Source: Candidatus Omnitrophota bacterium
Lineage (GTDB): Bacteria; Omnitrophota; Gorgyraeia; JAFGHF01
Direction: 5' to 3'
Length of the DNA stretch: 64,000 nt
NCBI GenBank assembly: GCA_042571705.1
Contig: JBHPFV010000001.1
Location: 46,630 to 110,629 of the forward strand
The notes under the pieces are model-generated. The model saw only the letters and a list, made by a program, of their open reading frames with translations, was not told the DNA's origin and ran no database searches. Of the stretch, positions 42 to 54,897 are shown one piece after another. How positions within the stretch are numbered: position 1 is the first letter of the stretch; the number at the start of each line of letters is the position of its first letter. The translations under genes and the position numbers were made by a program.

Positions 42-83
42 TTTAAACAAAAAGCCAGTATAAAGGGCGCCCAATCTGCTAAT

Positions 84-195
84 GTGCTGGGTATTTTGCC
101 TGTGCTTGGTTTATCTACCCATAGCTTCTATGCCTTGGCGATTATTGGGTTAATTTTATTAGGAGCCGCTATCTATCGTTTGGGGCGTAAGGGCG
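84..195 (+). repeat. Junction J0 (LG..PVLG motif + TM + basic cluster) at the ORF start
   Basis: Peptide VLGILPVLGLSTHSFYALAIIGLILLGAAIYRLGRKG. DNA gtgctgggtat resembles J1-J3 (ctgggtatatc), and PVLG resembles J15/J24. Confidence 0.5.
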
Positions 196-6100: not shown

Positions 6101-9100
6101 GATTAAGCTCCATAGGGGTGGGGCTAAGCTGATTTTTAGACTGCAGGGCGTGCCTTTAAGAAATTTTGACTGGGCTGAGATTTCTGCGGATGAGGCTAAA
6201 GAGGTAGTCAGGACAATCGGCCTGGCCTTAGACAAGCTACACGCCTGCGGCATTGTCCACAATAGTCTTTGGGATATTGAAATAATAGAAAACAACATCC
6301 GAATTATAGAGGAGCAAGGTACGATTAAAGTACATTTTGCTAATTTTGCCTTTGCCGAAACCGCCATTCATTGGTTGCGGTTTACCCATGAGCGGGATAC
6401 CCTGATTAGTCTGCTGACAGAAAAACTAGATTCAACATATGCAGATGGCCAATTTGACTGTGCAGAATTTACTGCCTGCTATGAAAATTGGCCCTTGGGC
6501 AAGCAGAGGCATCCGCCAACAGCGATGATTGGCTGGATCTGGGAGCGTTGGATCGGTGAGGGCAGGGGCAAAATCTCAAGAAAAACCGCAGCCAGGATAT
6601 CGTTTACGCTTGAGGAAGGCTTTTTTGCCGGAATCTTACTTAATTTTCTGCCGTGGCTGTTTGCGAAAATTGGTTCCTTGGACCCCGGTGTTATGTTCGT
6701 GGTGTTGTTTTATCTCAGCATCGTCTGTTATGCCACATCCCACACCCGGATCTATCGCTGGCAGCAAGGTAAAGTTGAGGACGAAGAGGCCAATGTGCGT
6801 CATCTGTTCTGGTTTGCGCTCATAGGCTTCCTCTTCCGCATTGGTTACATTATTCCCGGTGTGCCGGGATGGTCGAGCCTGCTTCTAGCCTTAGCATTAC
6901 ACGCCCTGTATAACAATGTCGTTGTGCCACTTGTACCAAGGCTGCCTTTAGCGATGGCGGCGGATAAAGTAACTCCGGCAAAAGCGAAGCTATCTCGCCT
7001 GCAAAACTTTGCCCGGGATTTTAAGTATATGAAAAATATAACATATCGCATTATTAAGTTCAGATATAATGGCGCGCGCTTGGAAAACGGCAAATGTTAC
7101 ATTGTCAGAGCAAATAAGCCTGATGTACGTGCAGTTGAAGAAGCAAAGGTGCTTTTGGATATAAATCCGGAAAATGCCGTTCAGTCTTTGCCTAGCTTGA
7201 TAGGTTTTGTTAAGCCTGAAAGCGTTCAACAGGCCATGGAACATACTTTTAGCTGGTTTGATGATTTTTCTGATGCGATAGTGGTTGAATTTATTGATGG
7301 TCAGAAATTAGAAGATTATTTTGCCCGTGTTTTAACTCATGAAAAGAAAAGCCTGGGTGAACCTATCCTTTTTGAGTTGGTTTTGAAGATCCTGCGAGCT
7401 TATAAAGAAATTTACGCGGATAAAGGATATGTAGCTTGTGATTTGGATCCTTTTGGAATTATTGTGCAGGCAAAATATAATGGGATTGAAAGAGTTGTGT
7501 TTGTAGATAATGATGCCACGGCAAGGATCGATGACTTAAGTTCCGCAGCCATCTATAATAAACTTTCACACAAAGATGACTTCATAAGTGCAGATAGAAG
7601 AGCGAGGATTAACAAATATATCTTTTGCAAGGATGCCCTTGGGCTAAAACACGAGCGAGTTATTTCCTTGTCTAGAATGCTTTGTTTACCCAGAGACGAT
7701 GTTTACGCTTTATGCGCGACTTTATTACAATGTATTCATTATATTCCTCAAGCATGGTTTGATCAACCTAATCAAGGGAAGGCTAAGGCCAAGATTGCTC
7801 AATTAAAGCACTTGCTGTCAAAGTATAAACGCTTATCCTGCCGCGCGCGCAAACACGACCCAGCGTCAATAGATAATTTTATCCAAGATGTAGAGGCAAT
7901 AGCTGGGACCAAGCAGGCCAAAACAACACCCGCTACGGCGATGATCGGTCATTTCTGGAACTGGTTATACCAGAAAGATATAATATCCTTGGAGACCGCG
8001 GCCAGGATTGCCGGCTTAGAGGAGCTGGTGTTTGCTGGACTTTTACTTAATTTTATGCCTTGGTTTTTGGCAAAATGTGGATTCTTGGATCCTGCAATTT
8101 TTCAATTACTCTTTGTAATCAGCGTCATCTCCTTTGCTCTTCTTCACGATGCCTTCTATTTTTGGGAAGGCGATAAAGTTAATTTAGATTCTTTAATTGA
8201 TACCGAAACTGATAAAGTCTCATTTGCGCTCCTGGGCCTTGCCTTTAGATTAACTTATCTTATTCCCCAAATCAACCCCTGGCTTAGTTTAGCCATCGCC
8301 CTGGTTTTCCATACTCTCTACAACAATTTCATTGCTTGGAAGTGGTCTGATGATCTACCCATAGCCATGGCCAGTCAAAAGGCGAAAAGAGGAACAATGA
8401 AAAGAGCAATTTTCTCTGGTACTCGGGAGTACTCATTCACTAAGGATGATTTAACTACGAGGGTTCCTTGTTGGAGAAGATCTGTCGGAAGAGACAGAGG
8501 AAACAGAAGAAGAAGAGGATACTTTTCAATGGCAAAACAGGAACAAACCAACAAGACCGCGCTGGGTATATCTTTTGCGCCCATTCTAATGATCGCTGGG
8601 CTGGGGTTGATGTTGGGGCTGGTTGTGGTGTTTACCTTAGTGTTGTTGGGTTGGATGAGGAAAAAGGCGGGCAAAACACTATTATTTATAGCTGATAAAG
8701 GAGTTCCAATCTATCTCTATGTCTTGGAGAATCTTTTTAAGCAGCCCTTTAGAGATATCCTCTCCTTTATGAAAAGGCACTACCGTACATTTTCCATCAG
8801 GATGTTTAAAATAGATGTGGCTTCCACGCTGTCTAATTGGCTCAAAACCAAGTTGTTTAAGAATTTTGATGACCAGAGAGGATTTGAGAGGAATGAGTCT
8901 CATTTGGCCAGCGAAGATACGATTAAAGAGTGGGTCAAGGCCCAAGTTGCTGCCGGTGCCGATGTATTAGATCTTCATGTAGCAATTAAGGGAAGAGATG
9001 AGGCCGAAGATTTACTCTGGGTGATCGGATTGGCAAGAGAATGTACCACCCTGCCGATAAGTATTGACAGTGTTGATCCGCAAGTCGTTACCCAGGTGCT

Positions 9101-12100
9101 TCGGGCAACAGAGAATAGGACTGCCGACCCTAACGATAAAGATTATCTTTATGGTGGTCCGGTAGTGATTAATTCCATCAATGAGCAAAATGTGGCTGCT
9201 TTTACAGAAATCCTCACTGAGCAGAGTCTGCGGGATATTTCGGTGATTGTCCAGCCTCATCCCGGGCTAATATCTAAATACCTAGAGTGGGAAAAGTTAA
9301 CGGCGGCACAACTTGACAGCATTAAGCATTGCGTAGTAGCGCTCAAGGGATTAATTCCTGAAAGAGATATTTACATCGATCCGGGCATCCAACCAGTTGG
9401 GATGTATGGATCAGGATACGGGGTAATTGCCCTAACTCTGTTAAGAAAGATTAAGTCTGATCCTAAACTGGCGAATGTAAAAACCACGGGTGGATTCAGT
9501 AATGTAGGTAACAAATTAGAATTGTATAAAGATGTGAAGGAAAAATTTGAATCGGTCAAGCATATGAAATCTAAGCTGGCGCAGGCAAGTGTGATTATGG
9601 CTATGCTTTATCGGTCTTTAGACGCCGCCTTAATCGACCCAACAGACAGCGAGCTAATGGAGAGTATCAATATGGCTGGCCAAATCAATAAGGTCTGGGA
9701 GCAGTTGGAAGTTGAGGTTAGCAATCAGGAATTTCCTCTTGCTGACGAGAAATTGAGCGAGATCATTGATAAATATAATATCAGTATTGACGAAGAAAAG
9801 AAAGACCTGATCAATCAGGTTTGCATGCTGATGCTTATCGCCTCCAAGGCAGATCAGACTGATAAGTCTATGCTTGAGCCTGATTGGCAGCCTGAATGGG
9901 AGCCAAAGGTAAGCGCAGAAGACAGCGCTGCTAAGGCCCAACGCACGCTGCGGGCGGCCAGGGTAGCCCTGCTCAAGTCGGAGTACGGCGTGCGTAATCT
10001 ACTGGATGAATTTATCTTCGCCGAGCCAGTCATTGCTGAGCCGGAAGAGGATTCCGAAACCGAACAAGCGCTGGGCGTATCCGCTTTACCTATTCTAGCA
10101 TTCACCGACCCGCTATCAGTAGCTTTAGTTGTTTTCTTTTTGGTTTATGTAACATGGATATTTGTGGACTGGGCGTATTTCGAAGGTATGCGGCAGTTTG
10201 CCAGCTTTGAGCCGGTTGAATGGAAGGATATGCAGCCAGCGGTTCTATTTGTCAGACTGTCGAGTGGTTTGGAAGAATACCACAGGCTGGATGCTTTACG
10301 CGGTTATAATACCTTCGGCGCGCTGGCCAGCGCCTTAAGAAGTAAACAATTTTTACAAAAATTTGCTCACGCTAATAGATTAAACAGTCCCGAGTTTGTC
10401 TTTGAAAGTGAGGATGACTACCCTGATTTTGATGTGCATCTGGCCGATCTTTCCCGAAAGCCAGAGCAGGCTTCTATAGAAGAGTATTTAAATAATTTCC
10501 TCAGTGAGAAAAATATCCAACCATTTATGGTCTGCGTATCAGCCACCAGCACTGAACTTGACGAGGCCAAGGAAGTAGCTAGAGTTTCGGCTGAGATTAT
10601 GCCTGAGGCTAAGCGAGTGATCGGCGGGGCACATGTTTCAGTAGCACCTAATGGCTATTTACGCAAGACAGCATACCAGATTGCCTGTATCGGCGAAGGG
10701 GTAGAAACCCTGACCGAATTAGCTTTTGAGTTGAATGTTCAAGGCCGGCGCAGGCCGAAACTATCTAAAATTTCAGGCATTGCTTACAAAACCGCAAAAT
10801 TTTGGATACGCTTAACTCCGGATAGGATGCCTCAACTTAAGCTTAATGATTATCCTTATCCCTCAAATAGCTTAGATTTGTTTGTTGATAATTGGGAAAG
10901 CGTTGAGGAAAATAAGAAGTGCGTAATTCCGATATATGCCGGTTCAGGCTGTCGATACAATTGCGCCTTTTGCGCTCAAAAGGCAATCTACAAAGGAAGA
11001 ATCAGAGAGCGCAGCGCAGTTAGCATCTTTTCCGAGTTAAAGAAGTTACACAAAAAAGGTTTTAGAATGTTTAGGATGCTTCAAGAAAGCTTTCTCAATA
11101 ACAAGGACAGGAACAAGGGCAGGGTCGAACGATTTTTAGAGTTAATAGAGGCAGAAAAAGCCAAAAATGCAGATTTTAAGTTTAAATGGCAAGCAGAAGC
11201 CAGGGCCGACCAATTTGATGATTATAATTTATTGCGCAGGATGAGAGACAATGGATTATGGGGTATTGCGATAGGCTTAGAAACAGGCGACCAGGCGCTC
11301 CTTGACTCCTTAGACAAAAAAATCAAGCTTGAACAGGTGTCGCGGTTAATCGAATGGTGTGATGAGCTTGGTATCGATATAGTGGCTTACTTAATGGTTG
11401 GCCTGCCTAATCAAGATTGGCAGAGTGCGTTAAAGACAGTCATCTTCTTCAAAAGGAATCTGCCGCGTATTATTTATATTAAAATTAATCCATTTATTGC
11501 TGCTGCCTATCTAGGTACTAGACTCAGCAGAGACGGCTCAATAAGAATTATTAGAAAAGCAAAGAACAGCCTTGATTTACCTGTAAGCACTGAAACCGAT
11601 GCGAAGACTTCTGAAGAAATAACCGAAGCATGGGAACTCCTGAGTAAGTTCAATGTCGCCTTTGAAGCAATAACTAGAGTTGTTGTAGTAGACGGAACAG
11701 ACCTTTACGAAGTGCCTTTAGATAAGCCAACCACTTTAATAATTAGAAGGACTATGCGAGATCTTGTTATCCGGGCCCAGCCCAAACTTACGGCCAAGAA
11801 ACGCAAGCAGGCATATCAACAAATAGTTAAGCACGATGTAGCCGCAGATGTGGATATTGGTTTTGAGCGCGAACAACTGGCCACAAGGCTGTTTACCGAT
11901 TTTATTCTGGATATAAATTTTGCCAATGGATTTAAGGCAATGCGGCATTTCACTGTCGTCAACCGGATCAAATGGATGCTCCTCTGCGCCGCTATCTGGG
12001 GATTAAAGAATAGTGAATTTGATACTATAGAATTTACACAAGACGAAGATACGTTAGGACAAAAGCTCAACAACTCATTAGAGGTAGTTAGCCTTAAGGA

Positions 12101-15100
12101 GCTGAATGGATTGGTAAGCGCAGTTGATCAAGAGGAAACAGCAGTTCCGGATATAGCGCAACACCTCCAAGAGTTTACCGCTCAGCTAGATCTTGATTTT
12201 ACTTTCGACAAAAGCGCCGGAAGGCTAATTTTGGCCAAAGCTGAAAAAAGCGAACAAGCAGTGCTGGGTATATCGATTCTACAGATTATGATTCCTGTTG
12301 GCCCAATAGCATTAGCTCTATTTATCGCCTTAATCTTAACCTGGCTGTATTTTAAGACCGTTTCTCAAACCAATCGGAGAAGCCTGCCCGCCAGGTATAC
12401 TCTTGGGCAGGCGGGTGTCCTAAAACCAATCCCCGCCTGCCTGACAAGAAGCAGGGCGGGCAGGGGAAAAGTGTACCCTGGGCAAAATCGTAAGCATCCG
12501 ATGCAGTCTCTGCTTGGTGGCGGCATAGTCCGGGCCAGTGTATCATCCGGTTCAAAAAATACGGAAACAGAAACCGCTCGGTCTAAAAGTCGTCGGAAGC
12601 GCATTGAGGCAATACGAGAAATGGTGAAAGACAAGCCAGATCATTCTGTTGAGTACGATGAGATAGTGCGATACTTACATAACCTATTTGATGATACTAG
12701 CGTAAAAAAACTCACAGTCGTACAAGATTTTAGAATTGAGCCAACCTTAAAACCTCTGAAAATAAAAATTAAAATAAAACATGAGACTTTTCCAGACACG
12801 CCGGCGCATAGAGATGCAATAGTTAAACTGATGGAAGATTTGCCAAGAGGCACCAAGTTGACTTACGAAGAAATAGCAGAAAAGATGAAAAAACAAGGTT
12901 TTGATAGTTCCTTCAGGAGAGTCATGCGCGAATTTGGCAGCAATGATGCACGTCTTAAAAAATTGCGTCAAAGAATTAAAAGCGAAAGAATTGAGAGAGC
13001 AATAGAAGCCAAAAGACGCAGAGGCGAAACAGAGGCCTATTTGAAACCGTTGCCGCCAAGGTCGATTACCTATGAGCAGTTAATAAAGATACTTATCGAC
13101 AAAAAAAATTGTGTAGGACTGAGACTCAAGCAGGTGCAATCAGACTTTGATCATGAGCCGCGCCTGCAGAAGCTACGCAATAGAATCAGGCTGGTTCATG
13201 TCGGAAGGAGCCTTAAGCCGCTAGGACGATTTAAATTTGATTTCATTGGCCTGAAAGCAAGAGGAATACTGCCTAGATTTTTAGTGTTATCAATGAACAA
13301 TTGGGACAATGAGAAGGCAGCTAAGCATTTTGGTGTTGGTTTTGAGACATTTATAGGGCAATGCGTAACGCTCAAAATTAACGAGATGCGCAATCCTGAA
13401 CAGGGGCGCAACAAGATTAACCTTGAGCAGTGGCAGATAGAGCAGCTCAAAGATAGGCAGGCTACGGCACTTGCCTATCATCAGGCCTGGGAGCTGGCCA
13501 ATGGCGATAAGAAACAAATGGCCAAATTACTGGGTATCAGTCGTAGTTGGGTGAGCAACCGGATGGGAAGGCTCGGCAAAAATTTCGAAAAAAGCCTTGG
13601 CCCGAATATTGAGCTGCGTATAGCAAAGGAAATCGGGATTCTTAATGTCTGCAAAAACCAAATTACACCTTCTGAATTGGCGGCTAAGTTACATGAGAAG
13701 CCTGTTTACAATAACATTCCTTTGGCCCAACTGGAAAAATTGGTCTGGCAGGATGCCTTGGGCTTCAAAGATATTTGCGCCCACCGCAACTTCATCTTTG
13801 CTGAATGGGTGCCGGTTGAGATTAAAAAACCGAAACTAGGTGGCGCTAAAGGCCAAGTAAGCCCTCTAAGGAAACCCCTAGACCCAAAAGAGGAAAAGTT
13901 AGCGAAAAGGGTAAATAATGCCAGAGCGCTTTTATCCAGCTTAGAGCGTTTTTATCAACACTATTTAATTCCGAAACAAATTGGCATCCAGAATGATAAG
14001 CAAAACATCACCTGTTTGTTGATGATCGAGACCATGTTAGGTTGCTTAAAAGACATTATCCAGGATCATATTATTAAAGAACCAACAATCAAGCAACTGG
14101 GTCAGGATCTAAATGTAGACACTGTGGGCCTGGAAAAAAGAGCAAAAATAGCAAGTAAGGAAATTAGAAAGGGGCCTACAGGTAGCATGAAGACATTAAG
14201 CAGGCGTAAACAAGAAATATGGGATGAGATTAAATCTGCTGATGAACTCGATGAAGGCCATCTTAAGTGTGAAGACGCAAAACCAATAGTGCCGCCCATA
14301 TTTTGGATTCCTTATGTGGAGAGATTGCGAAAAATACACAAAATATGGAAATCGCTTCATGCTCAAGAGGAAGGAGAAAAAGAAGCTCACTGGGAAAAAG
14401 CGCTTGCACCCGGTCGCGCTGCCGCGTCCGGCTTTATAAAGCCCGACTTTTTGCCTGAGGAAGACGTGCCATACAAAAGATCAAATTATAAGAAAGACTT
14501 AGAGCGAGCGCAGAAAGCTGTTGCGGAAGGATTAAAGTCAGCGCAGAAAGCTGCGGCTGAGCCCCGGAAGGCTGAAGATACTGTTGAGGGATTAATGCAA
14601 AAAGCTCAGCAGGAGTTAGGAAAACTCAAGTCTTTAGCGGCAAAAGGCGTCGGTGGTATGGAATGGTTTGAGAGCGTTAGTAGAATAGAAAACATGCTCG
14701 ATCGACTTGATGCGGTAGCTCATCAGCTTAGTAAAGAAAGTGATATTGTTTTTCTTTGTTACTGGAAATCAAATCAGCGGGTAAGACTGGAAGAACTGGC
14801 TGAGAGGCAAGAGAAACCAAAGCGACACTCAGAGGATGATGAACAGTTTACTGCTCAATTAGCGGCCTATGAAGGAATGACATATCCAGTGATGTTAGAA
14901 ACCAGCTTAGCGGAAGGAAAAATTAATTTTGCGGTTACCCTGGTCGCAAAAATCGAAGTTCGCGGATGGGCGGATACTATTCCCGGCTGGGGTGAGCTTA
15001 AGGCTCGTGTAGTACGGGAGGCAAAGAACTATCAGGCCTCTGCTAAAAAATCCGCCCCAGACACAAAGTGCCTCTTATTGCCGCTGGCCTGGATTGCCGC

Positions 15101-18100
15101 ACCCGGCCTGCAGCCTGCCACCTGGCAGCTAATTCTTTTCACCTTGTGTCTATTCCTCATCCTTTGGACCGTTTCTCAACTTGACCCTGCGCTTAAAGGA
15201 ATTGCGCAGGCTAGGCCCAAAAGCCTGTCCTTTAGGAGCTACCCTTGTGGGTTAAATCGGGAAGTTGAGCTGATTTCAAAGCGGAACCTCTCTCCTGACA
15301 CGGGAGAAGCAAAAAATTGGCTGCACCAAATGACCAGGGCTAATTCAGGTAGTTTGCCAGGAACAACAACTCCAGATGTCCAGGGAGAAGTCCTTAAAGT
15401 TGATAAATCGAGGTTTGACTTGGGAGAGGCTATTGATCAGGTTGTTCAGTCAAAGACCACAAAAGGACGCAAGCAAAGGGTTGTGGAAGTGCGCGGCGAT
15501 ACAGTCCAATTGCAATATCAGCAAGCAATAATTTCCGATATCTTAACTACACTATTAGGAATTATGTTCACGGTTATAAGAGTTAGCGATAAGCTAGCCA
15601 TTTATGTCAGGAGCGGAGAGGAGAAAGTCCTGATTAGATTATTCAGCACTTCCCGCAAGGTGAGTAGACGAAGATTAGAAAGTGAAATTGAGCAATCTGG
15701 CATTCAAGACAAATTGGATGATATCTATGGCCGGCTTTATCCGGAGATATTTAGAAAAGCAGGCCATGATTCCGCAACAGAGATTGTGCTAACGCTTACT
15801 TTGCCGATGAGCGATCCCAAAGCTTTAGTCAGGGCTGGCGCCCGCCACGGCATGATTATTGCTGATCAGGACATACCAGATCCAAGAATTAAGAAGTTTA
15901 TGGACATTATCCGTCAGCACGGTGCAGAAAACCACTACATAGTCTTTGGCGGGCATGGCCGCAATATGTTTTCCGGCCGCAAGGGTGTTCCAGCTGATTT
16001 CGATGTATTAGTTAGAATTAATGCAAGCGAAGTTGATTTATTAAGCGCAGGTTGTGAAGTTAGTACTTTATTGAAACAAGGATATGTGACAGCAGAAGAT
16101 TTACAGTTACTAGGCGCCAACGAAGCAACAGTGCTAAAAGCAAGATTAGAACAATTAGAGAATGAATTAGTTGGTGTGTCTAAGAAAGGCAGTACTTATG
16201 CTCGTCTGCGTGCAGCTTTTGAAAGACATTACGGAGATCGAAAGAGTTTTAGAGGCGAAGAGATGCAGACTCGCAGGATAGTCAGATATCTAGCACATTT
16301 AGAGATAGTCAGGCGTTATGTCTTGCCTATGACCGAAAGGCTTGAGAAAATTTTCGATGTGGAAAACGGGGCTATTTCAGATTATATTAGTCGGGATAAC
16401 CGACTTGTTTGTTTATACGCCCGGACCAAGCATTGCCATATTGATGGCGGCTGCCTGGATTATGCGGGATTTGTTACTTCAGATGGACTATTTCATCAAG
16501 CCCGTGGGCGATTTCAAATAATTGATGGCAATCAACCCCGCGCAGATCAACTAGGTATATGTTGCAATGGGGTGGTTTACGATCCCCTCGGAGCCTTAGA
16601 AGACTATCGGCAAAGAACTATAAAGCTAGAATCCAAATTAAGCGAAAAGGACAAAATTAGAATAAGGCAAGTATTGCGTTGTTTTAGAATTAAACATTTA
16701 AATTTATTTAATCCAGATGATGAAGCGAAAACTGCAATGTATGATTTTTGTTCTAACGCTTCAGGCGTTTTCTTCAATTCAGCTTCTTGGCGAGCATTTA
16801 CTCAAAGGCATGCTTTATTAGATGAGGGAGTGAGGCAATTAGAGGGGCTGATATTAAAAAAGAGAATGATTGTCCGTGAGTTACACTTCGAAGAGGAACA
16901 ACATATTCAACGAGAAATAAACCAACAGATTAGGGCACTGCTTCAATATATAAAAGAAAAATCATCTGCCTGGCGTCTGGCCAATCAATTCTTAAGAGAA
17001 GATTTTGCCGCACTTGTTTTACGGCAGAATAACGCACCCAAAAATAGCTACTTAAAGGAAGAAGCCGAAAGAAAACTTATGCTTGGTTTAGAAAAATACC
17101 TTTATATTCCTTCTAATGCCGGGGCCCTCTTCTCTTATGCAGGGGTGTATCGATGGGTTCAGGATGTAAAGAGAGACCCGGTATTTGTAGCTTGGTATTT
17201 AGGTAAGATTTACCGGGCAGCGCTTCGGCCGGAGGATGTAAAAGAAGATTTAAGGCAAGCAGAATTTTTGCCTTTATTTGAAGCCCTTGGTATCAGTATT
17301 GACAATATGGAAGAAGAGGCGATTGATTATAGACTGGCCAGCCTGCAGGAGCCTATTACTTTGGAAGAGGAAATTAGACTTGCCGAATATATGCTGGCAC
17401 AAGGCCGCTGTCCTGAAAAGTGGCTTTACGTGCTCAGATATGCTTATCGACAAAGAGCAGTCCTGGATAGAGAAGAAGGCCGGCCTATAGCCGCTAGCCA
17501 GAATTTCAACAGGGCCATTGATTGTAGGATTACTTTAGCCGGATTACAGACGAAAGATAGACCACAGGATGCCGCGGAGCATTACTTAAGCGCCGGCAGT
17601 ATTTGCGAAGAGATTGCCGATTACAACAAGGCCAAAGTGCTTTATCTTGCCGCCTTAAGGATTCTGCAATGGGAGAGCGCTAAATCAGAAGACTTACCCG
17701 ATCTTCAATCTTATGCTACATGGAATCTCTTAAAAGAGACATTTGAGAAGTTATCGGCATTAGAATGTAAATACGGTAAGATGCATTTAGGTACCGAACA
17801 TCAAAAGAATGCTAATTTGGCCGCAATCGAGGCAGACAATGCTGTTCTTGCCCCAATCAGAGCAGAGCTTAAGGCTGCCGGCAGCTCTTTAAGCCCGCAA
17901 CAGCACTTAGTTAATATTATCATGAAAGATGCGGTCCTGAAAGAAGGCTTGGCAGCAGTTGGGCTCCTAAGACAACTCTCAGGTAAGGCTGCTCAATTTG
18001 GCCTGAGAGTGGCCAAGAGAACACTAATGCGCAGAACTACCAATCTGGACGCACCGCAAATAATCGGCGTAGACTCAAGGAAAGGTCGGCACGCGGATAA

Positions 18101-42100: not shown

Positions 42101-45100
42101 TGTTTTAGCAGCATATTTTTTCCTCCCTCCCGAAGCAACAACCCAAGCCATGGCTCAGCTTTTCGGCACAGGAGGCAGCGCAGCAGGAGTTAAGTCCTTA
42201 CTCCCGGCAGGCGGCATGGCTCTGGCCATGGCGGGGGTGACAGGAAGCGCAGGCGCAGGAGAAAGATCTGAACGAGAATTTAAGCAACCTTCAAGGAATC
42301 TTGTTAATAAAGATGGCCCAAAGGCTGGCTTCGGCGCACCGTGGAGAATTGATGTGGCCAATGTGCCTACGCTTGCTTTTACTCAGGTTGCGGCAGCAGA
42401 ACCCGAAGATTCGATGTTTGCATTGAATATCTATCTGCGCTATCTCTCGGTCGCAGCCAAAAAAGAAATTATGAATAGAATTAGGCGTGCACGTAAGTTT
42501 ATTGAGAAGCTAGAGTCAATGTATCCCGATGCATTAACTTTTGTGCTGTTTGGAAGCTATCCTTATGGTTTTATGAATGAGATACCACGCGACATAGATG
42601 TTCACATTACGGAAAGCAAGAACGAAAATATTACGCAGCTAACAAATCTTGCTGACCTTTTTGATAGGTATAGTCGCACGCCGGAAACCGTGAAAGGCGT
42701 AGTTTTTACCGAAAAAGATTTCTTAGGGTCATTATCTCAAAATAACGCAGGTTTGATATTGCCTTACGTTCTAGAGGCATTGACCGGTATTACCGTTAAG
42801 GGGAAATTTTATTACGATGTCAATAATCCACCTTCGCTCAGGTATATTTTCTACCTTTTAGATTTTACTCAAGAAACCATAGATGAATCGATGGAAATAT
42901 TAGATTTGCCTTACTCGAGTGAAAGTCTTCAAGAGTACAGGCATTATAAGGCACACCAAGTGCATAGAGATAAAATTCGCTTTGCTCAAGACACCATAGA
43001 CGCGTTTGAAAGAAGAGAAAAAGGCAGAGCTGCCATGCACATGAGAGCTATAAGACTTGTATGCCAAAGTCAACTTGTTATGAAGTTGATCTGCGATCTA
43101 TATGGAGTAGATAGCACAGAAGTCCTGCCGCCAACATCCAATAACCCTTATATTAACGAACAAGCGATCAAGACATTGAGTACATATATAACAGAAGGTG
43201 CTCCCCATATGTCGTTCATCATGGACGGCGTACATAATACTGACGACTTTACTTTAGTCTATGATGCCTGTCGTCAGCTATGCGAGGCATTAACGAGTTT
43301 GGATGAAAGAGTGGAGAAGTTGCGGCAGCGTACCCAAGACAAAGATCCCGATGCTGCCTCCGGCTCAGACGGTACAGCCCTCTCCATCTTCGGACTTTGT
43401 GGGTTGGGGATGGGTGGTGTGCCTTTACTGGCTGTTGGGGCAGTGGTTGTGCTGTGTTTTAGCCGTATGTTTAGGTCGGGCTTAAACAGGTGGGGTTGGG
43501 GCATTGCAGCTGCATTATTACTTATCCCAGCGCTATTTGGCCAGTCAACAGAGCTGTTTGCGGTCGCAGGAGGTTTTAAGCCTTTGCTTGGCGGGGCAGG
43601 CGGCATGGCTCTGGCTATGGTCGCCATGATGGGTGGGATGACAGACGTTGGCGATGGGTCGCATAAAGATAAAAATAGGTCTGACCCCTTTTCTCCACAA
43701 CCTTCTTCGGAAAAAGCAAAGAAGGTAAAAGAAATTTTTGGTGAAAACGCGATAAAAGACGAGCTCGATTTAAATTATGATTTTCAGCAGCTTGTAGAAG
43801 GACATAGGAGAGAGAGGTTTGAAGAAGGGAACGAAGGTGGGGCGAAAGGGGAAACAAAGTGGTTTCCTTTAAGAATAGCTTTAATGCCGCTTTTTAGATG
43901 TGTAGCCAATTGTCTGTATTGTTTCTTTGGAAATAGCGTACATAAAAAAGACGAGATGTCCATAGAGAATATGGCTCATATATTCGATACCCAAGAATTA
44001 CTTATAAAAAATATTTTCTCACATCTAAGCGGAGGAGAGATTTTCCTGAGGGATGATGTGTTGGAAATGATTGAGAAATTTCCAATCGTTTCATTAGTTA
44101 CTAACGCGGCAACCATGACTTCTTTAGAAAAAGCTAAGGATTCCATTATAGCGTTAAAGAAAGTATATGAAAAAAGAATAGAATCCGGACAGATGGAGAT
44201 TTTAAAGCCAGATAGTTTTGGGCAAGTTGATAGATATCAGAGATCCTGGTTGTGTTATTTATGGATGAGAGAGAAACTAATAGAGTTAACCCGAAATGAG
44301 CCTTTTCATATAGGTATTTCCTTAGATGACATTTGTTTAGCGGAACACTCTATTTCTGTGGGAAAAATAGCAAATTTAATAGTCGCTTGTGTTAATCATT
44401 ATCCTAAATTGGGCCTGGGATTTATAGCAATTGATGGAAAATGGAAAGAAGAAGCATACCCTGCCCTGAAGAAAGAACTTGAGAGGCATGGTTTAGCTTT
44501 AAAATTCAATGAAAAAAATAATAATTTTCTTTTGACAAGGCACGGTGGATTTAGAAAACTAATCAATTTAAAAGAAAATTCTATTGAAAAAGTGGGCGGC
44601 GCTTTTGCTAATTTGTCCGGTGAAAATTTTGGCAAAGCTATTTTACCCAAACAAAGGTCTTATTTTGGATTCTATAAAGATTATTATGGACTAGCTATAA
44701 TTGATTATAGTGGCAACATGAGTATTTCAGACGGTTTCTTGGCTGAGCATGCACCTCTTATATTTGGAAATGTACTTGAGGAAGGCTGGAGTAAAATACT
44801 TAAGAGGGTAGACAAAGATCCACTATTTAGAGCGCTAGTTACCTCAACGCAAAAAATTATTTCAATAGCAAAGGAATATGATCCTGATATTGTAAAAAAT
44901 ATACAAGAGGGCAAGCCCGGTGGGACTATTGCACTATTTTACTGGCTTCTCTCCAACCCCGAGCGAAAACTCTACGTAACCTATCGGCTTCTGCAAGACT
45001 ATTACGAAGAGGGCGTGTTAAAAGGCAAAAATCCGTTCAAGGACCTGGAGCCACATGAGATAAAGGCTTTAGTTGAGAAAGAGGTTGGAGAATTAAGAGA

Positions 45101-48100
45101 TGAATTCAGAGAAAGACCAGGTAAAGCCACAGATGATGGAGGCAGTCACGAATCTCCTGAAACTCTATCCGCCTTTTGGTTTGGTGGGTTGGGACTGATT
45201 GGAGCCGAGCACTGGGTAGTGCTGGCTGTGGGTCTAGGTATTATGTTTGGGGGGACACTTCTCCGATTGGCTCGAGAAACGGTCTCCGATTGGCTGGAGA
45301 ACCGGTCTCCGTTTGGGCTGAGACCTGGTCTTATCAATGTGCGATTAGTAGGCTGTTTGGTATTGGGGATATTAGGCATCGCGGCTCTATGGCTATGGGG
45401 CGGCCCAGGTACAGGGCTGGCTGTGGCGGCGGACTTTGAGCCTTTGCTTGGTGTAGGCGGTGGCGTAAGTTTAGCTATGGCGGGGGTGGGGGTGATTTAT
45501 GCAAGCTTAAATGATAAAGAGGGGCAGATCATAAGTGCTGTTGAGAAATTTTATAATGAACATGGAGAGAATGTTTATAGAAACACTGCAGGAGGAATAG
45601 GGGGGAGATATAAACCATTGCCATCAAAAAAGGCGATGGAAGATTTATGGTTACTGTGTAAACAGTTAAGAATACGAAAAGGAGACAAATTTTATGATTT
45701 TGGATTTGGGGATGGTAGAATTGCTGTTATGATGAGAGCGCTTGGTCTCCAAGCGTATGGCGACGAAATAGATGTTAATTTAGCCAAGAAAGCAAAGGTT
45801 TTATTAGGGAAAAATCTTAAGAAGTATTCATTTTTAAGTAGCCTTGTAAACGAAGACAATGTACATCTACAACACGGTGATTCCTTCAATCGAGATTTAT
45901 CTGAATTTGATATTGTCTTTTTCTATTATACGTTTCCTATTCCAGATTGGACCGGAGGAAATCAAGATTTGGCTAGAGAAGTGTTTAAACAAAGAGTATG
46001 GGCAAAGCTGATTGGCAATATAGACGGAAAAGGCCTTAAGTCTGGGGCACAATTTATTACTTTCTGTCCTCCCGAGAGCAAATATTGGTTAGATGACTTT
46101 GATGAATTTAATGTTATGCATTGTGGTAATTTCGGGATATATGAGCTGAAACCGCAGGTTGGGGATGGAGACTTTGGTGGCTGGATGACTGATCCAATGT
46201 CTGGATTTGTTGGTATGCATCAGGCGGGTTGGCGTAAGAAAGCAGAGGAATCGCAACCGCCCCCAGAAGATATTTATTCTATAGCAAAAATAACCGTACC
46301 GAAAACTGCACATAGGCAAAAAGGAATACACCACAGGCCTTCGCTAGCTCTTGTTGATACTTGTGGAAAAATATATAAGCTATTTTCTGAAAATATTATA
46401 ATTAAATTTTCAAGGGGTGAGGAAAGTAGTGGCGATGAGGCTACTTATCGTCATGGAGGCATTGCAGAGTTTGTTTTTAAAATAGGATCCTCAGGTGGAT
46501 ATACAGGGCCATATATAATTACTATCGAAGGGCCTTTTAAGCAAGACCTGCTTGAAGAGGCAGCCAAGATTCTTGCTACCGTTCTAGGGGACGAAAGATT
46601 TAAATATGGTTTTCATTCAGACCTGCCACTGAGAGAGGAAATAGATGAAAAGATTAGACAACTCAGAACATCCATTGCCAAAAATAGGGGTGACGACCAA
46701 TCTTCAGAAGCCCTATCCGCTTTGGGGCTGGGGGGCTTGGGGTTGATGGGTGGCTGGAATGTTGCTATTTTGGCTGTGGTGACTGTAGTGGTTATGGCTA
46801 TTTTTAGCTTACGGCAGAAACGAAGGGGTGATTATCGTGACAATGAGGTTACTTTAGCCTCAAGAGTAGATATGCGTTTTTCCAGGGCTTGGAGTTCTTG
46901 GCGGTCAACTTTAGTTTTGGCGAGATTATCAATGCTTTGGGTAAGTGTCTCAATTTTAGCGGCCATATTCTGGATTGCCGCTTCTAGAAGGGTAATCTTT
47001 TCGGTATTCTTGCCAACTTGCTCATACGTAGCATCAAGCTTAGAAACCATTTCTTCTTGTCGTTCGCCAAATGCCTTGAATTCACTGCGAAATTGGTCAA
47101 TTAGCGTACCTACTTCCGTGGGGCTAAATTTAGCTTTGGCAGGTTTGCTTGTTCTGATGGGTTTTTTCATGGTGAGGTATATAATAAGCCTGCCGAGCGC
47201 AAAAGTCAAGCGAAAAATAATGCCGCTAACCGTTAAAGGTGAGCTAAATGTACAATTACTTGAAAGGTTGGTTGATCAGGCTGGCAGAAACGCCGGATTT
47301 GTGCTTGATGTAGGGATTATAGCCAGGATTGTTGGCGGAATGAGAGTTCTAAGGTCAGGAAAACGCAAAGATATAGATATTGCTCTTATTTTGCAACATC
47401 CTTTTCAAGGTGGTGAATGCAGCAAGTTTATTGAACAGTTTAAACAAATAGTAGAGAAACATCAAGGTGTAGAGTTAAAGAAAAGAGAAGTGAGTGCAAA
47501 GGAAGGGAGGCATTTTCCGTTTCATTATCTTAAAATTACTTCTTCTTTAGCAGGACAAGTAAAAGAGATAGAAGTTAGGGATATATTTCTTATACTTGAC
47601 TCAAGATTGATTTTATCTGCCCTTGCTCCACCTTCACAGGTTCTATCAGACCAGACGCTCGAATCCCTATCCCATTTATCTTTCAAGAATCTTATTACTT
47701 TAGAATATTATCTTGGTGATTTAGAAATATACACTAAGATGTTGGAAGAATTCAAGAGTAAAGTTCAAGATGGCGGCGATGTGATCGTTGACTTCGATAA
47801 GCATCCTTCTTATGCTGAAAGGGCAAGGACGCATATAGCGGAAGCCAAAAGATTAATGGAATGCAGTGAAAGGGAGTTGGCTCAGGATGAAAAATTTCGT
47901 CAGGTTCATACCCGTTATACCTGTTTTATCTTTAATGTAGAAAAAAGGGTCAGACGTCAATCTCCGAGACCGACGAACTGGCGGGGGCATCAGATGTTAC
48001 CGTCGGGAGTGGTGATGACACAAGAGATGCTGCAGAACAACGGATATGCGCAGGGGTGGCAGCAAGGCAGAGCTGCTCGAGCAGCCAATGCATGGTTTGG

Positions 48101-51100
48101 CTTAGATGGTGCCGATTCTTTTACAGATCCGCTCATACCCAACATAGCCGGTGCGTTTCGGCAGGGGGTGAATCGGGGGAATGAGTCTGAGTCCATTGGA
48201 GAAAGTCAAAATTCAAGACCTGACCCCATTTCTGGTAGAGGGGACGGCAGGAGAGGAAGAAGTGAACCCGTCCCCAATACTACTGCAGACAATAAGGGGA
48301 AATCTTTTCTTGCTTTTTGGAGTGGCGGTAAAGATAGCTACTTTGCCGTTAAGTGGGCATTAGAACAGGAGTTGAGGGTTGCTTATTTATTTAATGTTTG
48401 CTATCGCAAGCCGCCGAATGGCAAATTGATGTCTTTATGCACTCTTCCTGTCGACTTAATATATTTACAGTCCAGAGCTTTGGGTATTCCTTTGATTACA
48501 AGCATTATAAATGTAAATGATATGGCATATCCAGGAGTGGGCTATGTGCAACTTTCTACCAATACTTTAAAGAGGTTTGTTAAGAGTTCAAAGAGTAATG
48601 TCGATGGCATAATTGCCGGAGACATGTTGCAGGACAACAAAGATGAATTAGAAAGAATTTGTGCCAGCTTGGGCATTAAACTTATAATGCCACTTGAACA
48701 TCAAACTCAATCGGAAATCTTATTAGAAGCCGTAAAGTCCGAAAATAGGATAGTTATTTCTTCAGTTCAAAAATCATCTATGGAATTGTCTGAGTTCTTT
48801 AGGGGTGGATTCGACAGGCGTTATATTGATTATTTGAGACGGCATCATAGTGATGTCTTAGGTAGTAACGGCGAATATCATACTATAGTGCTCAAGGGGA
48901 GTAAGTATGTCAATGGCTGGATAGAAATAATAAATGAAACATTTGAGATCCACAGAGATTGGTGGGTACGCAGCTTTAATGAATATCGTTTTGTTCCCAA
49001 AGCGACGAGAGCTGAGGACAAAACACTCAATTCCGCCCAAAAAAATGATTTACCCGATTCTGAAAGTAGTGCCCTATCCGTCTTGGGGCTGGTTGGAGTC
49101 GGATACTGGGTAGTGGCGGCTGTGGCGGCGTTAATTTTTGTCATCATCGCCAAAAGGGACACTTTCCCGTTTGGATCTGGCCCAGCTTCCCGATTGAATC
49201 CAGACCTGGTCCTACCGATAGGGGTGGGGGTTGGGGTGGCGTTGGTCTTCATGGCGCAAGAGGGGGCGCTTATTGGCGGGATGTTCCTGACCGCAATGAT
49301 GGGTGGGATATATGACATTGGTGGGAAAAAAGTGTCTGTTCCTAATTTACTAATGTTAAAACAACGTTTGGATACGCTAGCCACAATTAAAGACAAAAGG
49401 AAAGCCGTAGAATTCGCTCGTAGTTTTGGGTTGGATTTAAGGCCCAGTATTTATGGAATGTTGCATCCGCTTCATATCGGTCATTCAAGGGCAGTCCATC
49501 GGCAGATTTCTGACAATGACGACACAGAAGCTAAAATAGCTGTCGATGGAGCCGGAAGTGTGGACCTGACAACAATTGTACATTGTACCGGAGCGCGTGA
49601 AATTTATAAGATAGATCATCAGAGTACCTACACTATTGAACATTGGCTTGGAAGCTGGGATTCTTTTGGGACTCCAAGAGACCCATTACTGAATCGTTAC
49701 ACTGATCCGTATGCGGGATATAAATTTATCAATGGGTACGGCGAATCTGGAGAATATGGGACCTTTTATAATCTAGCACAATTAGTTGCTGAACTAAAAG
49801 CATTGGGTGTTGAAAGAAGAGATATTGATACAGTAACAGAAACAGTGCAAAATGATGCATGGAAATGGTACGACGATAAAAAGGGCGAGAGGACATTTTT
49901 AAGAGAATTAAAATTTTTGTGGAGTCCAACAAGCAATGAATACGACAAGCAGCCTCACACTGTACATTTTATAAAAGGAGACATTACCGATCCGAGCACC
50001 TATTTAAGCAAGATCGAACATTTAAAAAGTAAAGTTGATTTTTACTACCAAAGAGCAGGATTTTCCGCAGCTCGATATTATGGGAACTATATACCCAAAA
50101 TATTAGAGTTGCTTAAACCCGGAGCTTTTATAATTACAGATGATTATTATTTAAGAGATGACGGAGAAGTCTTGGTAGTAGAACCGGTGGATTTGTCCCT
50201 TGTTTTGCAGGAAAAGAAACTAGATTGTTATAAAGTACCTTTATCGCCTAAAGTTGAGGCCTGGCGGAAAGCTATCTTGAAATTTTTAAAACAGACTATT
50301 GTCAATAGGTTATTGAAAGGCGAAGTTGGATACGGGTGCGACTTAAAAATTTACCAAAGGACTGCAAATATTGGACCAACCCAATCAACCTCTGCCATCT
50401 TTGTTCCCGGCCTGTTCGCCTTTGGCGAAACTATGCCGGTCCTGGGGATGGGTGTGGGGGGCTGGATGGTGCTGGCTGTGGGTCTAGGTATTTTGCTCTG
50501 GAGGGACACCTTCCCGTTTAGATCTGGCCCAGCTTCCCGATTGAATCCGGACCTGGTCCTACCGATAGGGGTGGGGGTTGGGGTGGTGGCGTTGTTCTTG
50601 GTGGCGCCAGAGGGAGGTTTTCTGGGCGGGATGTTCCTGGCCGCAATGATGGGTGGGATTAATGACGTTAGTGGAAAAAAAGAGTCTGTGCCTAATATTT
50701 TGAGTGAATTGCAGGGCATGATTCGACAGGCAGATAGAGAGGATGAATGGGAGTTAATTGTTTCCTGTACCGGGTTAAGAAAAAATATTGTTGCATTTGT
50801 ACTTAAAAGAGAAATTCCACTTCAAGCTGTGCCTTCGGTTGCCCAAGCTATAGCGCGTTGCGGCTTTTCAAAAACAGAAGAAGCCCTGAAATTGGTTAAT
50901 CCAGAAGCCGCGGTTTCAGCTGCTATTGCTATTCAATATGTTGGAAGGCCCAAAGTAAAGCAGCTTATGCGGCGTAATATTCCACAGGAAAAACTCGGTG
51001 CAGTTGCTGATCTGATAAAATATTATGGCCAAAATGCAGAAAGATTATTTAATCCAGCTTACAGAAAAGAAAGTTTTGTTACTGCACATGCATATGAGAC

Positions 51101-52988: not shown

Positions 52989-53003
52989 ACGGACAAGTAA
53001 AAA

Positions 53004-53345
53004 CTATTCTCTGATGCGGAAGCCGTCTTTTTCTAAGATAATCAATTTCTTATCTAAATCTTTCTGGGAGAATTTATTGAACAAGTCTTCTAAGCCGACT
53101 AAGATAGTGGAGATAATCGGTGGGCGGGCTTTGATTCTAATAATGCCGTGGAAATTTTTAGGTGGAAAGGTAAGCAAATTAGCAAAATCTTTGTCTTGGG
53201 TAAGGATAATGCGATTTTGCCGTTTGGCCAGAATAGCGATATCTGTATCTTTAGTTCCTGAAGTAGGCGTGGTAACATCGTGTCCCTTATCCCGCAGGAT
53301 GTCTACTAGTTCATCAGGGATGTTCTCGTCAACCAGTAGCTTCAA
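53004..53345 (-). CDS. DUF5615-family PIN-like putative toxin
   Basis: MKLLVDENIPDELVDILRDKGHDVT..TDIAILAKRQNRIILTQDKDFANL matches the DUF5615 N-terminal pattern. It is convergent with the giant ORF stop, separated by a 15-nt gap. Confidence 0.7.
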   Translation of the reverse strand: MKLLVDENIPDELVDILRDKGHDVTTPTSGTKDTDIAILAKRQNRIILTQDKDFANLLTFPPKNFHGIIRIKARPPIISTILVGLEDLFNKFSQKDLDKKLIILEKDGFRIRE

Positions 53346-53346
53346 C

Positions 53347-53601
53347 TTAAGCCACCTTAGTAAAGGGAACCGACTCTCCGGTCCTCATAAGCTCAGCCGC
53401 ATAATGGAGCGCCGCCTGAATGTGTTTTTTGGTAAGCTTTCGATAATACCTTCTAATTATTTCGTCTTCATCTACTCCGGACTCAAGGAGCTCAAGAACA
53501 AGATAGACCATGATGCGACTTCCTTTAAAACAAGGCTGGCCATGGCAGATTTTAGGGTCAACTGTGATATAATCTTCGATTTTGGTGATTCTCTTCAACA
53601 T
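53347..53601 (-). CDS. DUF433-family putative antitoxin
   Basis: ITVDPKICHGQPCFKGSRIMVYLVLELLESGVDEDEIIRRY..LTKKHIQAALHYA is a typical DUF433 pattern. It lies 1 nt upstream of the DUF5615 gene, with AAGGAG 7 nt before the ATG. Confidence 0.7.
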   Translation of the reverse strand: MLKRITKIEDYITVDPKICHGQPCFKGSRIMVYLVLELLESGVDEDEIIRRYYRKLTKKHIQAALHYAAELMRTGESVPFTKVA

Positions 53602-53654
53602 ATTTTCTCCTTAATTAATTTTTTAGTTCGTTTACGGAATAGCTTCTTTATGAA

Positions 53655-53683
53655 TTTATACCATAATTTTGAGCGTAAGTCAA
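53655..53683 (-). promoter_or_regulatory. Sigma70-type promoter for the DUF433/DUF5615 operon
   Basis: The minus strand reads TTGACT (53683-53678), a 17-nt spacer ending in TGG, then TATAAA (53660-53655). Confidence 0.6.
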
Positions 53684-53770
53684 TCAGGTTTTGTGAAGAG
53701 ATAAGGACAAGTCGGAGCAAGGATGGAATTAGGTTCAACCACCAGCCCGTGGCGCCTGGTTCCTTTTCCC

Positions 53771-53797
53771 GCCTGTTGGGGACCGCCCCCAACAGGC
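53771..53797. other. GC-rich 11-bp stem-loop in the TA/PilZ intergenic region
   Basis: gcctgttgggg (53771-81), loop accgc, ccccaacaggc (53787-97), perfectly complementary. No U-tract on either strand. Confidence 0.6.
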
Positions 53798-53847
53798 TTC
53801 CGGCTTGTCCGCTAACCATGACCTTACATTCAAAGGGGTTGGTTTAA

Positions 53848-54192
53848 ATGGAGGAGAGGAGAGGTTCTCCCAGGTGGAGGATAGAGCGGCCGATTCTGAT
53901 TAAGGCAGAAGAGGAACAGGCCGATTTATCCCAGGCGGTTTTAGAGGACATCAATCTCAACGGAGCCAAAGTCAATTTAGAGGTGCCCCTGGCTGTGCGC
54001 ACCAGACTGAAATTGGTGATTGATGTTGCCGAGGATGCGGCTCCAATCTTTAATGAAGGGGAGGTGATTTGGCAGAAAACTTTGGGCAATCAATTTTCCA
54101 CGGGCATTCGTTTCACCCTGTTTAGGCCCGCCGACAAAGAGCGATTCCTAAGCTGCTTTGACCAGCAGATTAGGCAGAGTTGGTGGCGCTGA
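53848..54192 (+). CDS. PilZ domain protein (1 of 3)
   Basis: ERRGSPRWR (RxxxR) and DINLNGAKV (D/NxSxxG-like), 114 aa. Confidence 0.7.
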   Translation: MEERRGSPRWRIERPILIKAEEEQADLSQAVLEDINLNGAKVNLEVPLAVRTRLKLVIDVAEDAAPIFNEGEVIWQKTLGNQFSTGIRFTLFRPADKERFLSCFDQQIRQSWWR

Positions 54193-54210
54193 AATTAGGG
54201 TTGACGGGAG

Positions 54211-54564
54211 GTGGAGAAGATGTTACAAAGTAATAGTGTAACGGAAGAACGCCGGGCTGATGAGCGTTTGCTGGTCCGCTGCCCGATAAAATTTCGGACA
54301 GAACAAGATGAGGGCTTAAGAGAGGCCTCAGCCAAGGACTTCAGTGACAGAGGAATCGGGTTTTTTACCCATTCCAGGATAGCGCCCAATACGCAACTTG
54401 AGCTGTGGGTTAATCTGCTGCCAGAGGCTAGGCACTTGCACGTCACCGGACGAGTAGTCTGGACCAAGCGCGGCCTGCCACGACTTTGGCGCGCGGGTGT
54501 ACGCCTTGAAGAAAGGGCGTTTACGAAAATAATGAGAATGTTATTAAACAGGAAAGAGAGGTGA
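54211..54564 (+). CDS. PilZ domain protein (2 of 3)
   Basis: EERRADERL and DFSDRGIGFF, 117 aa. Confidence 0.75.
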   Translation: MEKMLQSNSVTEERRADERLLVRCPIKFRTEQDEGLREASAKDFSDRGIGFFTHSRIAPNTQLELWVNLLPEARHLHVTGRVVWTKRGLPRLWRAGVRLEERAFTKIMRMLLNRKER

Positions 54565-54567
54565 AAA

Positions 54568-54897
54568 ATGAAGAAGAAAGATCGCAGAATATTTGAGCGG
54601 TTTGATGTTGACTTTTCGGCCAAGCTTAAGCAGGCTGAGATCAGGAAACAAAGCCCGGCCAATTGTTTCGATGTCAGCGCCACCGGTATTGGGGTACTTA
54701 CTGAGGAGAAACTGATTCCGACTCCGAAACTGGAAGTATCGGTAGATATCCCGGATGGATATACGCCCTTGCGCAGTGGAGTGCGGCTGATTTGGACCAG
54801 GAAGGTCCGGGAGGATAAATGGCGTTCGGGATTGGAGTTTAAAGGTATCAGTTTAATGGCCTTAAGGAGGGTGCTGGATAAGCAAATAAAGAAGTGA
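54568..54897 (+). CDS. PilZ domain protein (3 of 3)
   Basis: KDRRIFERF and DVSATGIGVL, 109 aa. Confidence 0.75.
   Translation: MKKKDRRIFERFDVDFSAKLKQAEIRKQSPANCFDVSATGIGVLTEEKLIPTPKLEVSVDIPDGYTPLRSGVRLIWTRKVREDKWRSGLEFKGISLMALRRVLDKQIKK

Follow-up and report, generated by a model that had tools for sequence, protein, structure and literature searches.

Here we analysed a 64,000-nucleotide (nt) window of a Candidatus Omnitrophota genome (assembly GCA_042571705.1, contig JBHPFV010000001.1, positions 46,630 to 110,629 of the forward strand) and found four gene units wholly within one giant open reading frame (ORF), on its opposite strand: a solo hicA toxin gene, a pair of phd-like antitoxin and ParE/RelE-family toxin genes, and two paralogous coiled-coil genes. 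Every unit ends 0–15 nt past the first hydrophobic element of a junction between modules of the giant protein, and the nested genes avoid every codon choice that puts a stop in the giant frame. As judged from the sequences compared, this rule of placement, antisense units at module junctions, is real and general. A first-pass annotation of the same DNA had held the placement to be junction-specific rather than random, and its recurrence in other Omnitrophota giant ORFs bears this out. The reading that we favour, with a probability of about 0.6, is that the units are secondary residents of permissive junction loops that are kept as dual-coding DNA.

Nested antisense units and the junctions that hold them

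The giant ORF (84..52988, plus strand) is a single frame of 17,634 codons with zero stops, beyond the 10,000-codon mark used for giants, and contains around 30 enzyme-like, mutually unrelated modules linked via repeated hydrophobic junctions. From residue (aa) 8480 onwards the boundaries belong to one motif family, which has two parts. Part 1 reads xxLS[AV][FL]G[LF]GGLG[LM], followed by a transmembrane (TM) segment and basic residues, and is present in at least 12 copies, all of them internal; part 2 is a TM segment followed by ADFEPLLG, GGVGLAMG and MMGGIxD. Junctions before aa 8480 carry other repeated motifs, for example CLLLPLAWIAAPG... (twice) and ...IQPWMW... (twice), and J1 does not share the junction sequence family of J16, J17 and J22. 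In full junctions the two parts are contiguous (aa 11313, 14430, 15025 and 16328), as the first-pass annotation had described, and at unit-free junctions the loop between them is only 11–25 aa long. The copies of part 1 vary at synonymous sites, so part 1 appears to be conserved mainly as protein.

The four units lie directly behind the first hydrophobic element of their junctions (Table 1). The tail of J1 ends at 8675 and the stop codon of hicA occupies 8682-8684; the TM segment of J16 ends at 38447 and the stop of the coiled-coil gene cc134 is at 38450-38452; the RR of J17 (39039-39044) is followed by the relE stop at 39060-39062; and the J22 tail ends at 46829, ahead of the stop of cc125 at 46832-46834. 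Direct reading confirmed this geometry at all four junctions, as well as the order J16, cassette, J17, cassette, part 2. J17 is a second part 1, separated from J16 only by cc134, and the two share a 65-nt direct repeat with 71% identity. The basic tail that had been described ahead of each cassette is present at J1, J17 and J22 but not at J16, where the residues 'QRER' are the antisense reading of the final codons of cc134. Stretches of 15 nt behind about 24 junction tails make up 0.7% of the 52.9 kb of the ORF, and 4/4 units fall there. The giant ORF contains a further 53 antisense ORFs of 70 aa or more; as none has any Pfam match, all recognisable nested genes are located at junctions.

Table 1 Junction elements, nested genes and 3′-end genes of the window (P, chance that the host frame stays stop-free under synonymous resampling)
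Feature	Position	Strand	P(host frame open)	Details
Junction J1	8556..8675	+		TALGISFAPILMIAGLGL..., TM segment, MRKKAGK
hicA, solo, 73 aa	8682..8903, ATG at 8903	-	0.006-0.03	Pfam HicA_toxin PF07927 6.3e-21
Junction J16 part 1	38343..38449	+		NSALSVFGLGGLGLFGGW, TM segment ending D 38445-38447; no own basic tail
cc134, 134-aa coiled-coil gene	38450..38854	-	0.06-0.10	AAGGAG Shine–Dalgarno-like sequence upstream; generic coiled-coil matches only
cc134 promoter-like site	38895..38923	-		TTGACA-17-TATGAT, 11/12 matches, TG-extended; between gene start and J17
Junction J17 part 1	38940..39050	+		QDTLSVLGLGGLGLMSV, TM segment, WWRRTN (RR 39039-39044)
ParE/RelE-family toxin gene (relE)	39060..39350	-	0.002-0.016	Pfam ParE_toxin PF05016 1.4e-11; codon-aligned with giant frame
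phd/YefM-like antitoxin ORF, 66 aa	39307..39507	-	0.0004-0.009	overlaps toxin ORF by 44 nt
phd-relE promoter-like site	39553..39581	-		TTGACT-17-TATATT; ~15 nt ahead of part 2 start
Junction part 2 (J18)	39597..39752	+		TM segment, AADFEPLLGVGGVGAG, MMMGGIYDASRKK
Junction J22 part 1	46704..46829	+		SEALSALGLGGLGLMGGW, TM segment, RQKRRG
cc125, 112-aa coiled-coil gene, cc134 paralogue	46832..47170	-	0.019-0.027	listed ORF (125 aa) reaches 47209
cc125 promoter-like site	47181..47209	-		TTGACT-17-TATTAT, 10 nt from ATG; next module starts 47220
288-codon ORF	52981..53847	+		overlaps giant stop by 8 nt (ATGAATAA), +1 frame
DUF5615 (PIN-like) gene	53004..53345	-		Pfam 9.4e-21
DUF433 gene, DUF5615 partner	53347..53601	-		Pfam 2.3e-20; no TTA, CTA, TCA codon

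Only two of the four units resemble toxin–antitoxin (TA) systems, hicA and the ParE/RelE gene with its phd-like partner, so that the earlier description of the cassettes as TA genes holds for half of them. The codons of hicA are in register with the giant frame and its start lies directly against the Pterin_bind domain of the module that follows. The 66-aa phd-like ORF matches NCBIfam phd_fam weakly (E 0.01; 15.2 bits, below the 20.8 cut-off). Beyond generic coiled-coil matches, cc134 and cc125 have no family in Pfam, NCBIfam or PHROGs and are therefore not demonstrably TA genes. Three of the four units are preceded by promoter-like sites that are sigma-70-like and near-consensus (10–11 of 12 matches). 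On the sense strand, each nested stretch adds a non-conserved linker of 75–180 aa to the giant protein (for example, TLLFIADKGVPIYLYVLENLFK and MVSTFFSRVAIRFSK).

Across every unit the giant frame has zero stops, and the other two plus-strand frames have 3–15. For each nested gene we drew synonymous codons at random according to local codon usage and recorded how often the host frame stayed stop-free; the joint probability for the nested genes is ~2-4e-10. The codon-aligned genes hicA, relE and DUF433 contain no TTA, CTA or TCA codon, although TTA makes up 25–28% of Leu codons. Empirically, 0.3–4.6% of antisense stretches of the unit lengths are open in this sequence. For 6/7 genes the frame used is the easiest one to keep open. 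The exception is phd: its operon partner dictates the frame, which is the antisense frame hardest to keep open. That it is nonetheless open argues for continued purging of stops, and not just for a lucky insertion. The units are thus whole genes inside an ORF on the opposite strand with both frames constrained, that is, nested antisense overlapping genes.

No stop interrupts the giant frame from window base 3 up to the listed GTG at 84, and so the ORF probably starts upstream of the DNA analysed; the first residues near window 1-84 (..ANVLGILPVLGLSTHSFYALAIIGLILLGAAIYRLGRKG) resemble another junction. At least nine Pfam families reach the curated cut-off (PIG-L, Pterin_bind, B12-binding, Radical_SAM, Glyco_hydro_130, PEMT/ICMT, Bac_transf, Diphthami_syn_2 (twice) and QRPTase_N), each in at most two copies and none dominating, and several further matches are weaker. 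A Kyte–Doolittle scan (19-residue mean > 1.7) gave dozens of hydrophobic peaks, many of them overlapping calls of one segment, which cluster at the ~30 junctions and at membrane modules. In the passages of two preprints that describe them, Omnitrophota giants tile many unrelated Pfam domains, have largely unique sequences and carry TM helices every few hundred residues as anchors (bioRxiv 10.64898/2026.06.07.730766; bioRxiv 10.1101/2023.11.21.568195). The present ORF resembles the 'multi-enzyme metabolic cluster' and TM-only class outlined there in being a single ORF of more than 10,000 aa with many unrelated Pfam domains, regular TM helices, unique sequence, modules shared piecemeal with other giants and an Omnitrophota origin; by these features it is a member of this known kind of multi-enzyme, membrane-anchored giant protein.

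Several smaller observations concern the junctions and linkers. Two junction copies (CLLLPLAWIAAPGLQPATWQLILFTLCLF; 15068-15170 and 18104-18206) are 98% identical over 103 nt and the modules around them differ, which points to a recent duplication or gene conversion. At window 33357-33422 (aa ~11095) a degenerate part 1 (RFPETLSVFGKEGDG) lies within a module with no TM segment after it, and looks like a decayed junction. An inner linker, GWR[KG]K..ES[EQ]PP, recurs in three otherwise different modules (40366-40417, 46210-46261 and 52510-52561). Cys-aliphatic junction motifs (CLLL and CAIE; aa 4995, 6007 and 8240) share the ORF with a PEMT/ICMT-like membrane methyltransferase module (window 24990-25400), a combination reminiscent of CAAX processing.

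Recurrence in other giants and the 3′ end of the gene

A profile of the junction alone scored 24–53 bits in leave-one-out trials, which we judged too weak for a search of 1.8 billion proteins, and we therefore used a contiguous query of 1162 aa (aa 14422-15583). Exhaustive phmmer returned 67 proteins, among them Omnitrophota proteins of several thousand residues that have just one or two modules in common with the giant ORF; all relatives that could be named are Omnitrophota. Other searches were negative. Word-index protein searches with junction-containing and junction-free module queries gave none among the best 8000 candidates (a weak negative), DNA scans of GTDB genomes and JGI metagenomes with the module at aa 12330-12745 found no related locus, and exact look-ups of four window proteins found no match. 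A hand-made degenerate DNA pattern for part 1 gave 31 single, chance-like hits in JGI metagenomes and no part-1-bearing ORF.

Two relatives carry antisense units of their own. In a 5930-aa ENA protein (P0007), antisense-frame imprints of hicA (E 4e-14), DUF5615 (7e-13) and DUF433 (6e-5) can be recognised at the protein level. The DUF5615/DUF433 imprint comes directly after a TM segment and 'MRK', between two SGxRxFSGKDV repeats, and the hicA imprint lies a few residues past the RDSTSG boundary motif of its host. The second relative is on CP070797.1, an independent, chromosome-level assembly, in which a homologue of cc125 lies antisense at 10960..11322 of the locus examined, flanked by 21-nt direct repeats that encode NA(T/A)ASPV. 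After a frame change, the order there is ASPV, a GGDEF-like module, ASPV, an antisense pair of HEPN and MNT genes, ASPV and a further module. The probability of an open host frame is 0.010 for the coiled-coil homologue and 0.0004 and 0.059 for the HEPN/MNT pair. In both hosts the recurring units sit at or just after the junction motif of the host itself, beside non-homologous modules.

By reading, the repeated boundary motif is specific to each of the Omnitrophota giants examined: HCxGLLLxAIPxLA..PPW.. in P0005, [ED]R[GS]S[TAS]SG in P0007, LQTSSTRK in P0011, GPTTAS[SP]EW in P0027, RRRSPSG in P0031 and RSE[VMA]R in P0068. The six ASPV copies of the CP070797.1 locus (1841, 3359, 9920, 10886, 11513 and 14057) have the invariant DNA sequence GCCTCGCCGGT in a genome of 37% GC, which suggests constraint at the level of DNA or RNA, or homogenisation.

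The window locus itself is represented by a second assembly. Contig JBHPHE010000101.1 (GCA_042569555.1; 2433 nt) equals window 36997-39443 except for one mismatch and one 14-nt indel; it is without the 14 nt of window 37254-37267, a loss that would shift the giant ORF out of frame there. The PGAP annotation of this contig lists the antisense genes alone, among them relE/parE. The cc134 protein is 100% identical to NCBI ACFL2I_08115 from a Candidatus Omnitrophota metagenome-assembled genome (MAG).

At the 3′ end, the giant protein finishes in ...GENKDE. The DUF5615 and DUF433 genes are adjacent on the same strand with a 1-nt gap, and the pair begins 15 nt past the giant stop. The first-pass annotation had seen in this stop the same geometry as in the cassettes; the distance agrees, but no part 1 precedes the stop. 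The 288-codon ORF that overlaps the stop spans the antisense pair and the region upstream of it, is open for just 4 codons upstream of its own ATG and ends one base before the first PilZ ORF; its frames relative to DUF5615/DUF433 are those of the nested imprint in P0007. The overlap could stem from a frameshift, from a sequencing error in the A-rich stretch at 52969-52988 or from truncation of the giant ORF in the recent past. Three tandem PilZ-like ORFs follow at 53848-54897 (by eye from translations; no family search run), and a PilZ-like ORF also follows the giant gene on CP070797.1 (~20000-20400, by reading), which may be weak synteny of the 3′ ends. The slot before PilZ on CP070797.1 holds a TA family different from that of the window. 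Further downstream, the window ORFs resemble PilZ, oxidoreductase, ABC permease and glycosidase-like genes (translations read; no family search run); tRNA and Rfam scans gave no match.

Origin of the nested units

We propose that the units arrived secondarily, by entry into a giant gene that already existed or by shuffling together with junction repeats. They sit on the opposite strand, in the brief loop behind the first hydrophobic stretch of a junction, where extra sequence breaks no module; only in the antisense orientation can a gene that carries a stop leave the host frame unterminated. Purifying selection at the synonymous sites of the nested genes would keep the host frame open, which would make each stretch dual-coding. 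The toxin units may persist as selfish passengers or, as has been proposed for the TA cassettes of integrons, as stabilisers of a repeat-rich gene against deletion. Simple constraints account for much of the geometry: the loop of a unit-free junction is only 11–25 aa long and any resident must therefore abut part 1, and the 3′ end of an antisense gene necessarily faces the upstream element. A secondary origin is supported by the shuffling of modules among giants and by the different TA families at the 3′ end before PilZ. Units are bracketed by copies of a junction motif in three hosts (J16/J17 in the window, the 21-nt ASPV repeat on CP070797.1 and SGxRxFSGKDV in P0007), and TA systems have been documented as mobile cargo in a community rich in Omnitrophota. 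Entry of cassettes into an existing giant gene, which the first-pass annotation had listed as its alternative, thus fits the evidence better than relic spacers.

A number of results weigh against secondary residence. We found no orthologous locus with an empty site, so insertion is deduced rather than seen, and no target-site duplication, terminal inverted repeat or attC-like repeat was found around the units. Nested units are not universal: there are none in 23 kb of long ORFs in another locus (L036). Two of the four units are not TA systems, and a stabiliser role therefore cannot cover all of them. The solo hicA may be silent; it has no promoter-like site upstream and no hicB beside it, as the minus-strand ORFs on either side (8375..8674 and 9012..9260) lack a Pfam match and were read as the antisense of giant-ORF domains. 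Recurrence of the same relative frame had been considered as evidence of shared descent or transfer and was rejected, because the frame used is usually the most openable one and intrinsic openability largely explains the pattern. Finally, translation of the giant ORF through the units is deduced from sequence.

It is possible, although we hold it to be doubtful, that the junction repeats are themselves the active element, either as a substrate of homologous recombination or as a site of protease or RNA processing. Units would then travel as blocks of junction, unit and junction, and if the motif is cleaved, the non-conserved peptide would be cut from a polyprotein. In favour of this reading, units are bracketed by motif copies in three hosts, and a repeated boundary motif of its own was read in every giant examined. 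Conservation of DNA within a gene, in the 15068/18104 pair and in the invariant GCCTCGCCGGT of a 37% GC genome, fits as well, but part-1 copies differ at synonymous sites and are conserved mainly as protein, and hicA and cc125 are directly followed by a module, with no second motif. One partial protein (P0004, MFC1632459.1) is 100% identical to the window over 1305 aa from the first residue of LSAFGLGG onward (window 41406-41445, aa 13775-13788), and upstream of this point carries a 314-aa HTH-like module that is unrelated and has no counterpart in the window. The breakpoint reflects either junction-mediated rearrangement or a chimera of short-read assembly at the repeat. No protease could be assigned: Rce1/CPBP-like modules suspected at aa 2144-2278 and 2616-2748 have no Pfam support and were rejected as evidence.

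The first-pass annotation had preferred a fossil array, in which the modules were once separate genes that ended in a part-1 sorting signal, lost their stops and fused in frame; part 2 would be the N-terminal anchor of the next gene, and the convergent TA genes would come from intergenic spacers. We consider this improbable. Two modules have homologues that stand alone and are complete, P0006 (532 aa; gene at 16-1614 of a 1820-nt contig) and P0017 (462 aa), and their existence makes a fusion origin of modules plausible. Each carries an N-terminal hydrophobic anchor, but these anchors are unlike part 2 and the C-termini are without a TM segment or part 1. Part 1 shares the layout of short motif, TM helix and basic cluster with tripartite C-terminal sorting signals (PEP-CTERM/exosortase and LPXTG/sortase), but differs in being internal, in being repeated at least 12 times in one ORF and in matching no curated model: when ten junctions were scanned against NCBIfam at E up to 10, the sole match was LPXTG_anchor (E 1.9), which falls short of the cut-off. 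Neither among the giant-ORF copies nor among the stand-alone homologues was a C-terminal part 1 followed by a stop found, the JGI metagenomes gave no ORF with part 1, and no sorting enzyme is apparent among the downstream window ORFs (translations read by eye; no family search run). The identification of part 1 as a sorting signal is therefore not borne out. The internal start remnants that had been suggested at module starts are not enriched either, with in-frame Shine–Dalgarno and ATG/GTG pairs after 4/23 junctions against ~2 expected.

In favour of the fossil array, the DUF5615/DUF433 pair lies convergent 15 nt past the giant stop, and the units of related giants lie at junctions, not at random positions. 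Yet each fusion would have to clear 2–5 stops from within a working antisense gene, and nothing is gained before the final one has been lost; junction motifs differ between giants and nevertheless hicA, DUF5615/DUF433 and coiled-coil units recur antisense; and the doubled part 1 of J16/J17 around one cassette requires an extra module loss and, with the bracketing repeats, fits insertion or recombination of junction repeats better. There being no orthologous locus for an empty-site comparison, a fossil array is disfavoured rather than refuted.

That the giant ORF is a decaying or mis-assembled gene, untranslated across the units and only incidentally open, draws on the 14-nt deletion in the near-identical contig and on shifts of frame in the window (52981-52988) and in the CP070797.1 locus (~17373-17431), but is highly improbable given 17,634 stop-free codons, a frame specifically open across all units, the same pattern in an independent chromosome-level assembly and part-1 copies that differ synonymously while the protein motif is kept.

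Known systems and implications

Two further known systems offer parallels. In Shigella and enteroaggregative Escherichia coli, set1A and set1B are reportedly complete, functional genes on the opposite strand within the larger ORF pic/she. The units described here are likewise whole antisense genes inside a larger ORF, but they number several per host gene, are confined to linkers, recur across genomes and read in the sense direction as non-conserved linker rather than as a functional domain. Chromosomal (super)integron arrays of Vibrio contain small TA operons with their own promoters, sometimes inverted, that have been proposed to prevent array deletion. Small TA operons with promoters, sometimes inverted, inside a long repeat-punctuated array are common to both systems; in the present case, however, no attC-like repeats were found at the units (no integrase search was made), and the array is one ORF, so that units must be stop-free on the other strand too.

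Long, fully nested antisense genes in bacteria are rare and contested. Term searches of the passages available from the two giant-gene preprints gave no mention of genes nested on the opposite strand; there, 'antitoxin' (2026 preprint) and 'toxin' (2023 preprint) are never used for a gene nested in a giant ORF, and gene-specific repeated junction motifs are not discussed. A wider literature search gave no other description of antisense genes nested in giant ORFs. The kind of host gene is thus already known, and for antisense units in its junctions we found no prior description.

With no fewer than five protein genes nested in a single host and a further three in a second genome, the codon-level signature of dual coding provides a clean natural test set. 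It also provides sequence-level evidence that selection keeps these giant ORFs open, which makes translation over their whole length probable, an unsettled question in the giant-gene literature. Gene callers lose one or the other, the nested genes in CP070797.1 and the giant fragment in the ACFL2I MAG, and therefore both TA and giant-gene content in Omnitrophota are miscounted. The findings mark the junctions as the structurally permissive, and possibly the evolutionarily active, parts of giant proteins. In an unlikely but more far-reaching picture, Omnitrophota giants would be polyproteins remodelled via gene-specific junction repeats that serve as both recombination and processing sites, with the peptide of the antisense slots excised and TA units acting as locks against deletion. 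If true, the architecture of junctions and nested cassettes would be an unrecognised way to organise an operon's worth of functions, together with selfish passengers, in one frame.

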